From an uncultured Acidobacteriota bacterium (GTDB lineage: Bacteria; Acidobacteriota; UBA6911; RPQK01; JAPXNP01), in NCBI GenBank assembly GCA_963777605.1, contig CAVZRV010000028.1:128001-192000 (forward strand): 64,000 nucleotides of DNA, in the 5' to 3' direction. The notes under the pieces are model-generated. The model searched no databases. It was not told the origin of the DNA and worked only from the letters and a program-made list of their open reading frames with translations. Of the stretch, positions 3,052-45,820 are shown in pieces (position 1 is the stretch's first letter; each line of letters starts with the position of its first letter). The position numbers and the translations under genes were made by a program.

Positions 3052-3301
3052 AGATGCCCACGAATCGACCCTGACACCGAGGATTTATCAGATTTCTACA
3101 CTACCAGATTCGACTGTCCTGACGAATCGAACCGGCTTCGTTCTCGGAAATCCGCTGTCAAACGGAATCCGGAGAAGCCCGCCTTGAGTACGCAAGCACC
3201 GGTTTCGGGTGCTGCGATGCGTGGGGAATTCCCACCAGCCAAGAACGGGCTCTCCGAATTCACGATCCGGTGCACTCCTGTTCCTACCAGACCGAAATAG
3301 G

Positions 3302-40674: not shown

Positions 40675-41222
40675 GGGGCCTGGTACCGGACCAATCAGTG
40701 GAGACGCAGAATGAGTAGCCCGGAAGATACGGCAACAAGAATCAGTCCTTTGGCGGGGAAACCCGCCGAAGCATCGATGCTGGTCAACGTACCGAAACTT
40801 GTCACTGCCTACTACACCGAGGCCCCGGACCCGTCGGTGCCCGGGCAACGAGTCGCGTTCGGCACTTCGGGACATCGCGGTTCCGCGTTCGACAACAGCT
40901 TCAACGAAGGGCACGTCCTTGCCATCAGCCAGGCCATTTGCCGTTACCGCAAGCAGCAGCACATCAACGGCCCGCTGTTTCTGGGCCTCGACACCCACGC
41001 ACTCTCCGTGCCTGCCGGCGCCAGCGCGCTCGAAGTGCTGGCGGCCAACGGCGTGGAAGTCTTGATTGCCGAAAACGATGAATATACTCCCACCCCCGCG
41101 GTTTCTCACGCGATACTCACCTACAACCGGGGGCGCAAGACAGGGCTCGCCGACGGTGTCAATCACCAAGGTAATTCCCCCACCCGTTTACCACCGTAAT
41201 GTTCCCATTTGGATAAGCCACA

Positions 41223-41975
41223 TCATCTCGTCTCTTTGGTTTTGGCCGGTTCTGCTGGCGCAAACTTTGCGCAGGCACGCTCTCTGTCTGGGGCGGGATT
41301 CGTGCCCTGCGTCTGCACCCAACGCTGCTTGAGCCTTTGTACCTGGAGGCGGTTAAAGGCGCAGTACTCGGGGGATACGCCGACCTGCGCGATCTCCTGG
41401 AGGATGTCGGTGAAGTAGTGCAGGCTGCCGATCGGGGCACTGGCTTGCCCGTTGAGCCAGGAGACATACTTGCGGCCGCAGCCGATCAGGATGGCCTGCT
41501 GCACCAGCGTGATGGGGGTCGTCTGTCGGAACCACTGGCGTGCCAGTCGACGTTCCGCGGCTCCGAGGGCGAAACGAATGCAAGGTTGATCAAGCAGCGT
41601 GGTTCGGATGGCCTCGAGGTACTGCCGCTCCTGTGGGCTTTCCCCAGCTGCGGGGTCCGAGTGACGCTGATAAGGCCAGTACTCCTCCGAGACCTCGAGG
41701 ATGCCGTCGGTATGCTGATTCGGAGCCGACGATCGACGGCAGACTCCGCTTCGTTCCAGTTCCTCCAGATAAGTGCCGATCGAGCGGCGGGACTTGCCGA
41801 GCGCACGGGCCAGTTCGGCCTGCCGGAAGGAGAGTCGTCCGGAGTTGCGTTCGGCCTGAAGCGAGACCCAAACGAAGAGCTTGAAGGCTCCGTCGGAGAG
41901 TCGGTCGAGCGCCAGCCGCCACTCGCTTCCCGCCGCAAACCAGCCGTTCGAGTGCTTGAGTTGAAGGGTGCTCAT
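41223..41975 (-). CDS. IS21 third gene: winged-HTH plus DnaD-like helical domain (replication-initiator-like)
   Basis: ATGA overlap with istB; 'LSDGAFKLFVWV...QAELARALGKSRRSIGTYLEELERSG' wHTH; 'LVQQAI...SLHYFTDILQE' resembles DnaD/DnaB_2. Confidence 0.65.
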   Translation of the reverse strand: MSTLQLKHSNGWFAAGSEWRLALDRLSDGAFKLFVWVSLQAERNSGRLSFRQAELARALGKSRRSIGTYLEELERSGVCRRSSAPNQHTDGILEVSEEYWPYQRHSDPAAGESPQERQYLEAIRTTLLDQPCIRFALGAAERRLARQWFRQTTPITLVQQAILIGCGRKYVSWLNGQASAPIGSLHYFTDILQEIAQVGVSPEYCAFNRLQVQRLKQRWVQTQGTNPAPDRERACAKFAPAEPAKTKETR

Positions 41976-42739
41976 GAGGTTCCCTCCTTGTCGGATGGGC
42001 CCTTCGGGCGGCGTTGGTGCTTGCGATAGGATTCCCCTTCCCAGTAGATCTGGTGGGCGTTGTGGCAGAGGCGATCGAGCAGCGAGTTGGCCTGCAGAGG
42101 ATCGGGAAACAGGCCGGCCCATTCCTCGACGCTTCGATTGCTGGTCAGGATCAGCGAGCCCTTCAGGTAGCGTTCATAGACGAGCTCGTAGAGGTCGTCG
42201 GCCTGGGTTTCGGTCAAAGGCTTGAGTCCAAAATCGTCAAGGATCAGGCACTCGGGCGAAGCGTATTGCTTGAAGATCCGATCGCGAGAGCAGTCGGCCC
42301 GGGCGGCCTCGAGCGAGCGAAACAGTCGGGCCGCCGTCACATAGCGGACGTCGTAGTCTCGGCGCACGGCCTCGTGACCCAGGGCCAGGGCGAGATGACT
42401 CTTGCCGACGCCCACCGGCCCGCACAGAAAGACGCTTTCCCGTTTCTCCACGAAACGGCAGGTGGCCAGATCGTACAGGCGTCGGCGAGGGATCTTGGGA
42501 TTGAAGGGGAAGTCGAACTCCTCGAGCGTCTTGATCTCCGGGAAAGCGGCTTTGCGCAGCCGACGGGCAAACTTCGTCTGGCAGCGCCGTTCCAGCTCGT
42601 CCTGGACCAACAGATCCAGAAAATCGCGATAGCCGAGCTGCTCCTGTTCGGCCTGGGCCAAGCGAATCTCCAGGGTCTCGGCCAATCCTCCCAGGCGCAA
42701 GTTCTTCAGTCTTTCGACCAGATGGTGAGCGTGGCTCAT
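41972..42739 (-). CDS. istB: IS21 AAA+ ATPase helper
   Basis: KTLEEFDF, Walker A GPVGVGKS, Walker B LILDDFG, TSN, LDRL. Confidence 0.95.
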   Translation of the reverse strand: MSHAHHLVERLKNLRLGGLAETLEIRLAQAEQEQLGYRDFLDLLVQDELERRCQTKFARRLRKAAFPEIKTLEEFDFPFNPKIPRRRLYDLATCRFVEKRESVFLCGPVGVGKSHLALALGHEAVRRDYDVRYVTAARLFRSLEAARADCSRDRIFKQYASPECLILDDFGLKPLTETQADDLYELVYERYLKGSLILTSNRSVEEWAGLFPDPLQANSLLDRLCHNAHQIYWEGESYRKHQRRPKGPSDKEGTS

Positions 42740-44289
42740 GAAAGCTCCTTTCCGTGGACAAAATAGTCGGCCGGTCGTGCAAACCGGTAAGAGGGATGCG
42801 GCGCCCGCGCCGGCGGCGAGTCGGGAGCTTGCCGCCACAGGCCTTCTTCCAGGATCGTCCGCAGGCTGCGGTAGCGGAAGTTGCCGAAGCGCAGGGCCCG
42901 TCGACAGGCGCCATCGAGGGCCTCGGCTCCGTATTGCTCTCCCAGGCGGAGCACCCCCTGGGCCTTGCGGAGGTTGCGCATGGCGTGATCGGTGAGGATC
43001 CGGCGCATGTATTGCCCCACGTGCGGCCCCCATTCGTCCGCCCGGCGCCGGCAGTAGGCCGGCGTCTGTTCCAGATAGGCCAGTTTGTCGGGAGGATAAT
43101 CCTGCGGATCCGTTCTCCAGGTGCCCGCCCCGGCCGCCCGCAGGTGGGTCTTGAGGAGCTGGTGATCCCGGTAGACCCGCACCAGCTTCTGATCCGCCCG
43201 CACCCAGACCTGCTCTCCCCGAAAGCGATACGGCACCGAGTAGTAGGACTTCTCGAACACCAGGTGGCAGTCGGGATGGATCTTCGCCGGCTGCCAGGTC
43301 GCCAACTCAAAGGGTTCCCGGGGCAGCGGCAGCAGTTGGGCTTGTTCTTCCTCCAGGAACACCTCGTAAGGGGGACGATGGGTGGTTCCATGAGGGCGGC
43401 GGCCGATCTCCTCGCAACACCATACCAGCGCCCGCTCGTTGGCTTCCTCAATCGTCCGGTAATTGCGCCCGGCCAGCAGCTGCTGGCGGACGACCGGCAC
43501 TTGTCTCTCGACCTTCCCTTTGTGCTGCGCCATCGCCACCTTGGCCGGATCGGCCACGAAGCCGAAATGGCGTTCGAGCTCCGCATACGACCGGTTCAGG
43601 GTGGGATCGTACAGATCCGGCTTGAGGACGCCGCTTTTCAGGTTGTCGAGCACGACGGTCCGCACGCAACCCTGAAAGAAACGGAAGGCTCGCAGATGGC
43701 AGTCGATCCAGGTGGCGCTGTCCTGGCGGAAGACGAAGCGCACGAAACGATGCCGGCTGTAGCTCAGCACCATGATGAAGGCCCAGGCTCGACGAGGTTG
43801 CCCGGTTTGCGGGTCCACCAGCCGGCCGGCATAGCCGAAGTCCACCTGCGCCTGGACGGCCGGCGGGCTGTGCAGCCGGACCGTGACCCGTTTCTGCGCC
43901 GGGCGGAAGTGGCGCGTCACGTAGCGGTACACGCTCATGTAGCTCACCTTGAGCGCATAGTTTTCCTCGAGCAGGCGGCGCACCTGCTGAATGGTCATCT
44001 GAGTCTCTTCGAGCCACTGCTCGATCACGGCGTGATAGCGGCACAGCTGATCCTGAGCCGGCCGCTCGAAGGCAGCGCCTTCGCCGGAACCGACCAGCGC
44101 CGCCAGCGCCTCTTCGGGGGGCAGCGGCTCGTCCCGGCGGATCCCCGCCGCGCTCAGGCGCTCGAGATACTTGCGAATCGTTTTCCGGGCCAGGTGCAGC
44201 GAACGGCTGATCTCTCGAATGCTTCTCCCCCGGTGCCACTGGTAGACCATTTCCAGGTGTTCGTTCATGGCGATGTTCCTTCGCGCCAT
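42736..44289 (-). CDS. istA: IS21 DDE transposase
   Basis: QAQVDFG, LSYSR, DNLKSGV, KGKVE, YSVPY; GGAGGAG RBS. Confidence 0.95.
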   Translation of the reverse strand: MARRNIAMNEHLEMVYQWHRGRSIREISRSLHLARKTIRKYLERLSAAGIRRDEPLPPEEALAALVGSGEGAAFERPAQDQLCRYHAVIEQWLEETQMTIQQVRRLLEENYALKVSYMSVYRYVTRHFRPAQKRVTVRLHSPPAVQAQVDFGYAGRLVDPQTGQPRRAWAFIMVLSYSRHRFVRFVFRQDSATWIDCHLRAFRFFQGCVRTVVLDNLKSGVLKPDLYDPTLNRSYAELERHFGFVADPAKVAMAQHKGKVERQVPVVRQQLLAGRNYRTIEEANERALVWCCEEIGRRPHGTTHRPPYEVFLEEEQAQLLPLPREPFELATWQPAKIHPDCHLVFEKSYYSVPYRFRGEQVWVRADQKLVRVYRDHQLLKTHLRAAGAGTWRTDPQDYPPDKLAYLEQTPAYCRRRADEWGPHVGQYMRRILTDHAMRNLRKAQGVLRLGEQYGAEALDGACRRALRFGNFRYRSLRTILEEGLWRQAPDSPPARAPHPSYRFARPADYFVHGKELS

Positions 44290-45820
44290 CTCTCCTCCTC
44301 CGGGACTTACAGATCCCGCTCGGAACAGAGACGGTTCTCGCTTCAATCTGTCAAGCGGTGGGGGAATTACCTTGGTGAGACCCCGGGGGAATTAGCCTGG
44401 TGAAACCCTGGGGGAATTACCTTGGTGAAACTCCCTTTCGGTGGGGGATATACCATGGTGATCGACAGACGGCATTGTCATCACCCCGTCGCACAATCCG
44501 CCCCATGATGGCGGTTTCAAGTACAACCCGCCGAACGGCGGTCCGGCTGAGACCGGCGTCACCGACTGGATCGAGGCAAAAGCGAACGAGATTCTCGAAT
44601 CCGGCCCAAAAAGCGTGAAGCGGGTTCCGTACGAGAGGGCCCGTCACGCCTCGACAACGCATCGGTACGAGTACCTCCGTTCCTACATCAGCGATCTCGG
44701 CAATGTAGTCGACATGGAAGCAATTCGTGGCTCGAAGATCAGCCTCGGGGTTGATCCACTTGGTGGCGCCGGAGTGCATTACTGGGGCCCGATCGCCGAT
44801 CGTTACGGGTTGAACCTGACCGTCGTCAACGAGGCTGTCGATCCGACCTTCCGTTTCATGACGGTCGATTGGGACGGTCAGATCCGGATGGACCCATCGT
44901 CGCCCTTTGCCATGCAGCGATTGATCAGGATCAAGGACCGGTATGACCTTTCCTTTGCCTGCGACACCGACCATGACCGGCACGGAATCGTCACCCGAAG
45001 CGCGGGATTGCTGCCGCCCAACCATTACCTGTCGGTTGCCGTTTTCTATCTCTTCCAACATCGGCCGAAGTGGCGCAAGCAAGCGGCGGTCGGCAAAACG
45101 GTAGTGAGCAGCCAGATGATTGATCGGGTTACCGCGAAGCTTGGCCGGAAGCTCTGCGAGGTGCCGGTCGGCTTTAAGTGGTTTGTGGATGGCTTGTTCG
45201 ACGGTTCGCTTGGCTTCGGCGGTGAGGAGAGCGCGGGTGCATCTTTCATCCGGATGAATGGCAGCGTCTGGACGACCGACAAAGACGGCATCATCTCGGC
45301 TTTGCTGGCGGCGGAGATCACGGCGCGGACGGGCCACGACCCGGGCGAGATCTATCGCGACCTCACGCGCCAGTTCGGTGAGCCTGTGTACGACCGGGTT
45401 GAGGCATCTGCCACCCCGGAGCAGAAAGAGGCGCTGGCGAGACTCTCGCCGGACAAGATTCGACTCACAGCTCTGTCCGGCGAAACGATCGAGTCCGTGA
45501 TTACTCATGCGCCTGGCAATGGCGCTCCCATCGGTGGAATCAAAGTGATTGCCAAGAATGGATGGTTCGCGGCTCGTCCCTCAGGAACCGAAGACATCTA
45601 CAAGATCTACGCCGAAAGCTTCCTTGGAGAGGATCATCTTCACCGCATCCTGGAGGAAGCGCAAGCGATCGTTAACGACGCTATTGTGCCGGCGGCTCCT
45701 TCCATAACAGTTCCCCTGCAAAAAGATGAAAGGAGTTGATCTCATGAAATCCAAGTGCGCGCCTTGGGTAAGGGCAAGCGGTGTGGCTGTCTTGGGGTAA
45801 GAAGAAGGAAGGACAATAAT

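Follow-up and report, generated by a model that had tools for sequence, protein, structure and literature searches.

A third, istB-coupled gene in an IS21-family element from an uncultured Acidobacteriota bacterium, with relatives in other kinds of mobile element

Insertion sequences (ISs) of the IS21 family are described as two open reading frames (ORFs) between terminal inverted repeats (PMC10122671; PMC12486865). IS21 serves as a structural model of transposition under AAA+ control, and published accounts take it to consist of two proteins (PMC10122671, PMC11208146, PMC12486865). We analyzed a stretch of 64,000 nucleotides from an uncultured Acidobacteriota bacterium, referred to here as the window, in which an IS21-family element carries a third gene, ORF3, immediately after istA and istB. 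The three genes move as one unit in other genomes, and we think it likely that ORF3 is an integral accessory gene of the element.

All three genes lie on the minus strand (Table 1). The IstA protein matched NF033546 with 236.9 bits (cut-off 160) and contains rve and Mu-transpos_C_2 domains. IstB matched NF038214 with 259.8 bits (cut-off 200) and PF01695 with 233 bits, and gave weak matches to DnaC/DnaI models. The ORF3 protein is comprised of a winged helix (residues ~13-105), a five-helix domain (114-223) with the motif PIxSLxYF, and a disordered tail (225-250). The stop codon of istA and the start codon of istB share ATGA at 42739-42736, and the stop codon of istB and the start codon of ORF3 share ATGA at 41975-41972; both overlaps had been claimed in the original prediction, made from this DNA alone, and both are present in the minus-strand sequence. 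The ORF3 stop codon TGA (41225-41223) is 66 nt short of the element end at 41157, in agreement with the ~65 bp claimed. The interval originally outlined, 41223-44289, holds the three genes and falls short of the element limits, which are 41157 and 44467. The assignment to the IS21 family is based on an IstA-type DDE transposase, IstB directly downstream, and multi-repeat terminal inverted repeats that end in CA and are flanked by a short duplication.

Table 1. Positions of the element, its genes and its end features in the window.
Feature	Position	Strand	Remarks
Whole IS21-family element	41157-44467	minus	3311 bp, 5'-TG...CA-3', intact
Target-site duplication CCGTC, left copy	44468-44472	minus	by sequence inspection
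Left end	44350-44467	minus	four direct repeats of ~35 nt, core TCACCAnGGtAtaTCCCCC
istA, DDE transposase, 517 aa	42736-44289	minus	ATG at 44289; alternative ATG at 44268
istB, AAA+ helper ATPase, 255 aa	41972-42739	minus	ATGA overlap with istA stop
ORF3, 250 aa	41223-41975	minus	start overlaps istB stop (ATGA)
Palindrome TGCCTGCGCAAA-G-TTTGCGCCAGCA	41253-41277	minus	10/12 arm positions paired; within codons of the disordered ORF3 tail
Shine-Dalgarno (SD)-like and double-ATG motif AAAGAGACGAGATGATG	41221-41237	minus	its TGA is the ORF3 stop
Mini-ORF, 12 codons	41188-41226	minus	begins at the ATGATG motif; length and sequence unconserved elsewhere
Right end	41157-41215	minus	outer repeat 41157-41191 (good copy) and degenerate inner repeat
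Target-site duplication CCGTC, right copy	41152-41156	minus	by sequence inspection

To place ORF3 among other elements, we collected its relatives from two sources. A scan of genomes, with one genome per species, gave 167 relatives, and 80 loci from 17 assemblies were kept. A scan of metagenomes gave 536 relatives, of which 80 loci were kept; 74 of these were preceded by a frame of at least 60 aa, which was classified with Pfam. In the genomes, istA-istB was directly upstream of the ORF3 relative at 77 of the 80 loci. The upstream frame in the metagenomes was IstB in 55/74 cases, another DDE transposase in 8/74 (IS3-like at L090, IS481-like at L104 and L107, rve_3 at L119, rve only at L100, L127, L141 and L154), Prok_Ub or PRTRC_E in 8/74, and a protein without family in 3/74. 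The co-occurrence of ORF3 with istAB, which the original prediction had named as a check, was thus borne out in both scans. At 63 of 69 IstB-linked loci the istB stop and the ORF3 start overlapped by 4 nt; at the others the overlap was 1, 8 or 17 nt.

The unit of three genes is multi-copy in long-read assemblies, four of which contributed 26, 16, 10 and 9 of the 80 genome loci. Copies within an assembly were at least 99.6% identical over ~3.3 kb and had shared ends ~70 bp past ORF3; both ends were common to 13 of the 26 loci of one assembly. We observed perfect flanking direct repeats at 27 of 37 full-length copies from five assemblies (thirteen of 5 bp, seven of 6 bp and seven of 7 bp), and the other 10 had no duplication at the assumed boundary. 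ORF3 is therefore coupled to istB, lies within IS21 ends and is inside the repeated unit of other genomes, as expected if it is integral rather than a chance passenger.

Some copies had shifted ends (L019, L025, L044, L051, L065, L069-L072; L023, L024, L030). In certain of these the left boundary is moved inward by ~88 bp, to the innermost left repeat, and in others the right boundary is moved inward by 32 bp, to the inner right repeat; inner repeats may thus have been used as alternative termini. Of the 10 copies in one assembly, 8 (L059, L061-L064, L066-L068) share a left boundary at locus position 3115/3119 and do not have the first ~145 istA codons. These shortened copies are either a 5'-truncated derivative that proliferated or the result of one insertion disrupting all of them.

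Selection on ORF3 was compared with that on its partners. Within lineages, the ratio of nonsynonymous to synonymous substitution (dN/dS) was 0.15-0.33 for ORF3, 0.09-0.20 for istA and 0.09-0.16 for istB, and dS was similar across the three genes, indicating that they co-diverge. ORF3 is under purifying selection, slightly weaker than that on istA and istB. A gene that hitch-hikes in mobile elements as a selfish or host-directed passenger, for example for anti-defense or addiction, could also be portable between unrelated element backbones, as described below, and patchy in distribution; in the phylum sample, a match at E ≤1e-10 was present in 16/301 genomes, including the window's own and the unpublished G049. 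We consider such a passenger very improbable, given that position and strand are always the same, that the 4-nt coupling to istB recurs at 63/69 loci, and that the gene co-diverges with istA and istB within lineages. Most probably, ORF3 is instead kept by selection on the element and is not host cargo.

On the minus strand, the first letters of the window element are TGTCGATCACC and the last are GGTGATTGACA, and the terminal inverted repeats (41157-41184 and 44440-44467) are 28 nt long, imperfect and 86% complementary. The degenerate inner repeat of the right end was identified by eye against L007. The insertion splits a phosphoglucomutase/phosphomannomutase gene within domain I (window 40711-41156 and 44468-45739), leaving PGM_PMM_I upstream of the element and PGM_PMM_II/III/IV downstream. 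In public contigs from three runs of two studies, the match ends at 41156/41157 and is followed by three different flanks. Thus, the right boundary is real and is used at other sites. One public contig covers part of istB together with ORF3 and the right end. In its own assembly (96.7% complete) the element is present once. It contains no helicase or primase gene, is intact and is probably mobile. A weak contig joint from 41128 to 44468, seen in one run with a side of 27 and 23 other letters in the gap, may come from an uninterrupted phosphoglucomutase allele in a relative. The same genome has a second IS21 element of another lineage on another contig (L002, G000:C30:412348-415725), with an ORF3 relative that is 38% identical, frameshifted and spread over three frames.

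The two ends also contain promoter-like letters. The right terminus is TTGACA (41162-41157), possibly a -35 element, and the outermost left repeat contains TGgTATATC (44452-44447), 15 nt from the left tip, which is possibly an extended -10 element. If the ends abut, these would be separated by the junction spacer and a further 15 nt. Such a TTGACA/-10 geometry is that of the known IS21 junction promoter, and joining of the ends of the window element would be predicted to create a promoter of this type. A promoter scan of the integrated element gave 0 sigma-70-like sites, and a search of 41000-44600 against Rfam gave no match.

We asked whether the gene is confined to one kind of element. Between the window element and Bryobacterales-type elements, identity was 29-30% for IstA, 36% for IstB and 43-44% for ORF3. 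At 3 of the 80 genome loci (L029, L032, L074), IstB is absent and the gene preceding ORF3 encodes a different rve transposase. At one of these non-IS21 transposase loci, a gene resembling DruA (Druantia) starts just before the ORF3 stop (L032:4015-4824). Eight metagenome loci have a tyrosine-recombinase context, comprising those with Prok_Ub (L097, L106, L114, L118, L133, L143) and those with PRTRC_E (L145, L148). The Prok_Ub-linked homologs are the last gene after two tyrosine-recombinase genes and are followed by unrelated host genes; this tyrosine-recombinase and Prok_Ub module looks like a different kind of mobile element. A quick maximum-likelihood tree was made from 87 ORF3 proteins, with one copy per multi-copy assembly and leaving out loci without upstream sequence or without a stop before the contig end, one duplicate and one protein of less than 180 aa. 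The contexts were interleaved on this tree; the IstB label has to change 8 times, and well-supported branches force at least 5 of these changes. On this comparison of sequences, the ORF3 gene is portable among IS21, IS481-like, IS3-like, other rve and tyrosine-recombinase elements.

These results do not bear out the proposal that ORF3 defines a subgroup of IS21, because the gene is present in deeply diverged IS21 lineages and in other element types that are interleaved with them on the tree, and because a short form exists that has no winged helix. The long form, to which the window protein belongs, numbered 1175 proteins at E ≤1e-3 and 1581 representatives at 50% identity. In a protein atlas the whole of ORF3 matched unnamed clusters only, and its C-terminal domain had no usable named match. 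The family is unnamed, and apart from a weak match to HTH_36 it is covered by neither Pfam nor NCBIfam.

The short form was found with the same profile in the phylum sample, as multi-copy genes that match only residues ~110-225 of ORF3. These genes encode 107-133 aa and are directly behind an AAA+ gene at 8/8 places examined in 4 genomes. Seven of the upstream genes are istB, with 4-nt overlaps where read, and one encodes an AAA_22 (TniB-like) protein behind an rve transposase. In the latter case, three genes are consecutive with overlapping ends (L168:5140-7590); they encode a 422-aa rve transposase, a 281-aa AAA_22 ATPase and a short form of 115 aa. This trio adjoins an IS21 element carrying its own short form. 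Seven invariant columns (R, I, L, Y, F, E, Y) are kept in the short forms, including those of PIxSLxYF, and no helix-turn-helix was found in them. A profile search for proteins of 59-207 aa gave 3494 proteins, a set that includes some truncated long forms; all given names were 'hypothetical protein' and none had a Pfam domain. In many IS21 lineages the C-terminal domain is thus encoded by itself, immediately behind the AAA+ gene. The family therefore has this helical domain of ~110 residues as its conserved core and an AAA+ regulator as its constant neighbor. As modeled, the long form adds a winged-helix DNA-binding domain to the core.

The position of the short form behind an rve and AAA_22 pair is one reason to consider that ORF3 is a target selector like TniQ/TnsD that steers IstB to particular DNA. 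The gene also holds the position of tniQ in tniA-tniB-tniQ operons. Direction of target choice had been among the roles originally proposed for ORF3. However, there was no base preference in the 27 duplications of 5-7 bp, which gives no support to sequence-specific target choice. Three independent insertions with different duplications (L010, L013, L023) cluster within ~10 bp in copies of another repeated element that are 99.5% identical, a hint of regional target preference that would suit a selector. Set against this, no TniQ family was among the Pfam matches up to E 1, and the long form also occurs beside transposases that have no AAA+ partner. A target-selecting role is, in our view, quite improbable.

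The original prediction had described ORF3 as a winged-helix, DnaD-type protein resembling a replication initiator. For the N-terminal half, the winged helix was supported by a weak HTH_36 match, by the AlphaFold2 model and by structure matches. HTH_36 (PF13730) matched ORF3 with 19.5 bits, below the Pfam gathering score of 25, and matched 25/26 relatives at E ≤0.1 with a best value of 3.2e-7. Model confidence (predicted local distance difference test, pLDDT) was 82.6 for whole ORF3, 94.1 for the C-terminal domain alone and <50 for the tail. The N-terminal domain is a generic winged helix; its VIA-align matches reach Z 9.1 and include MarR, Crp and TFE types.

The DnaD part of the claim fared less well. 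When whole ORF3 was compared with the PDB using Foldseek, the sole match at E ≤1e-3, with E 9e-4 over 250 columns, was full-length B. subtilis DnaD as placed in an integrative model (9a5c_B). Against viral models there were 24 matches at E ≤1e-3, the top one being a 'replication initiator protein' (E 2.7e-5, 259 columns), and a 'replisome organizer' was just below this set with E 1.1e-3. PHROG gave weak matches to a replication initiation protein and a DnaD-like loader (E ~0.006). The C-terminal domain alone matched nothing in the PDB with Foldseek (best E 1.2). In a wide structure search it matched 2zc2_B (Z 6.8, root-mean-square deviation 2.6, 73/75 residues aligned) and 2i5u_A (Z 5.6), and these DnaD-like scores tie with those of AAA+ lid domains (top Z 7.1). 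There was no match to DnaB_2 (PF07261) in ORF3 (Pfam, E ≤1) or in 26 relatives. A search of the whole genome likewise gave no DnaB_2 match, and its control was positive in B. subtilis and L. lactis. A sequence search of the PDB found no match for the C-terminal domain and only SlyA, at E 0.43, for whole ORF3. Thus, the best whole-protein folds are those of DnaD and phage initiators, but with no DnaB_2 match, no PDB sequence match for the C-terminal domain and the tie with AAA+ lids, the label DnaD-type is weakly supported. Judged from the models, the architecture of ORF3 resembles that of DnaD-type replisome organizers weakly, with no membership at the level of sequence.

Near the right end, the DNA itself is conserved. 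A palindrome with the consensus TGC(C/T)TGCGCAAA-N-TTTGCGCA(A/G)GCA has 12-bp arms and a 1-nt center, and is accompanied by a motif with the consensus A(G)GAGA(A/G)ACGA(G/A)ATGATG. The motif is 29-46 nt downstream of the palindrome center where the palindrome is clear, and 34 nt downstream in the window. At least 10/14 positions are paired in 41 of 54 distinct sequences, the CAAA-N-TTTG center is kept in 42-46/54, and the arms co-vary. Conservation of the palindrome and motif does not depend on the reading frame, and both are situated at the ORF3 3' end or beyond it (L005-L164). In the window clade the palindrome is within tail codons and ATGATG supplies the ORF3 stop TGA; in other lineages the palindrome DNA is in another frame, or is 50-220 nt past the stop and followed by a T-run. 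Both occur beside a non-IS21 transposase (L029, L032), and the palindrome occurs beside an IS481-like one (L107); L029 and L107 are among the 54 sequences. An apparent tail motif, 'ACxKFAQ...ETR', was not accepted as a feature of the protein. At other loci (L005, L007, L035, L084) different frames run through this DNA, so the motif reflects a constraint on DNA, and the tail has the low pLDDT given above. A fourth gene after ORF3 was also rejected, since frames initiated at ATGATG have 3-46 codons and their sequence is not conserved. A reading of the stretch after ATGATG as DnaA boxes was dropped because, by eye, it is not conserved between lineages.

The simplest reading of the palindrome is that it would be a binding site for dimeric ORF3; it is also possible that it is a terminator or an origin-like site. 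These possibilities bear on two further explanations of ORF3. In the first, ORF3 is a transcriptional regulator or transposition inhibitor, acting as a MarR-like dimer on the palindrome to damp expression or right-end read-through and keep transposition low. The winged helix is nearest to MarR, CodY and Crp-type regulators, the site is palindromic with a conserved CAAA-N-TTTG center, a terminator-like T-run follows it in one clade, and the promoter scan found no sigma-70-like site inside the integrated element. But the site is at the 3' end of the operon and not at a promoter, short forms have no helix-turn-helix, and elements with the gene are nevertheless found at up to 26 loci in one assembly. 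We regard this explanation as unlikely.

In the second, the boldest of the roles originally proposed, ORF3 is the replication initiator of an excised form, binding an origin-like palindrome and recruiting host helicase-loading factors so that circles or junctions are copied. The whole-protein fold matches to DnaD and to phage initiators and replisome organizers favor this, as do the PHROG matches, the palindrome and following A-rich stretch that adjoin the gene, and the presence of the gene in several element types. Circular intermediates are a known or presumed feature of these types, the rve transposons and the tyrosine-recombinase elements. Yet there were no relatives in 50,697 phage records (tblastn) or in 2.9 million viral contigs, and 72,556 plasmids gave a single weak N-terminal match. 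The lack of a DnaB_2 match, the short form that holds the same position without a DNA-binding domain, the tyrosine-recombinase-element homologs without the palindrome, and the absence of a helicase or primase gene from the element also count against it. We give an initiator role a slim chance.

We propose that ORF3 is a DNA-binding accessory of the transposition machine. ORF3 would be made in step with IstB by way of ATGA coupling, and its C-terminal domain would act on or beside the DDE transposase/AAA+ machine. The winged helix, probably dimeric, would tether ORF3 to the palindrome near the right end. In this way, ORF3 may mark or organize the donor end or an excised or junction intermediate. 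The outcome would be regulated transpososome assembly, or a hand-over to host replication or repair in the manner of a replisome organizer for a DnaC-like loader. The DNA target of ORF3, its partners and its effect on transposition are all presumed in this scheme, and we judge the chances that the mechanism is correct to be evenly balanced.

Several observations weigh against the proposed mechanism. The palindrome and motif are missing beside the tyrosine-recombinase homologs and beside many IstB-linked ones. In the window the palindrome is present at a single site; a 16-mer search with up to 3 mismatches gave 2 matches, both at this site, compared with 2.6 expected, so that such a match is not rare by chance, and RNA folding of the right end gave no signal (z 0.84). 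The long form is also found behind transposases that have no AAA+ partner (3/80 genome loci and 8/74 metagenome frames) and in tyrosine-recombinase elements (8/74 metagenome frames), so an obligate partnership with IstB is unlikely for this form. Finally, co-resident IS21 elements of other types, seen as second IstB matches in the same assemblies, have no family member alongside, which makes the gene dispensable for IS21 transposition in general.

A broader conjecture, which we consider distinctly unlikely, is that IstB and ORF3 are the transposon counterpart of a pair of helicase loader and replisome organizer. The ORF3 family would then be an overlooked third subunit of IS21-type and some Tn-type machines, tying the transpososome or excised junction to DNA by its own palindrome and recruiting host replication. 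If this were true, the copy step would be controlled by the element and, in the extreme case, circles would replicate.

An unnamed family of thousands of clusters, coupled behind istB in environmental bacteria, is also swapped among IS21, IS481-like, IS3-like, other rve and tyrosine-recombinase elements. This suggests a missing accessory function common to them, and the family would serve annotation pipelines as a new marker of mobile-element ends. A search of full-text literature, as distinct from supplements and ISfinder, found no three-ORF IS21 or 'istC'.

The window element can be compared with four known systems. It shares with canonical IS21 elements (IS21, IS5376) a DDE transposase gene, istA, followed by the AAA+ helper gene istB, terminal inverted repeats that consist of several repeats and end in CA, and short target duplications (PMC10122671). 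Unlike the two-ORF elements of published accounts, it is 3.3 kb long and has a third coupled and conserved gene, with the palindrome and motif before the right end. DnaD and phage replisome organizers share with ORF3 an N-terminal winged helix and a C-terminal helical domain, and they pair with DnaC/DnaI-like loaders as ORF3 adjoins the DnaC-like AAA+ protein IstB. By contrast, ORF3 has no DnaB_2 profile match and no relatives in phage collections, its C-terminal domain reaches Z values of only 6.8 and 5.6, and the gene order here, loader then organizer, differs from theirs. In Tn5053/Tn7-like elements, TniQ/TnsD likewise comes third, behind the genes for a DDE transposase and an AAA+ regulator, but ORF3 has no TniQ family match (Pfam, E ≤1) and no target consensus. 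The 'tIS' of ISfinder are ISs with passenger genes, with an extra gene between the transposition genes and the end, and the window element has the same arrangement. Unlike in tIS, one gene family recurs here in thousands of clusters, coupled to istB and co-diverging with it, a pattern that does not fit occasional cargo. In comparison with these systems, the element is an ordinary IS21 backbone with a widespread, unnamed and portable third component.

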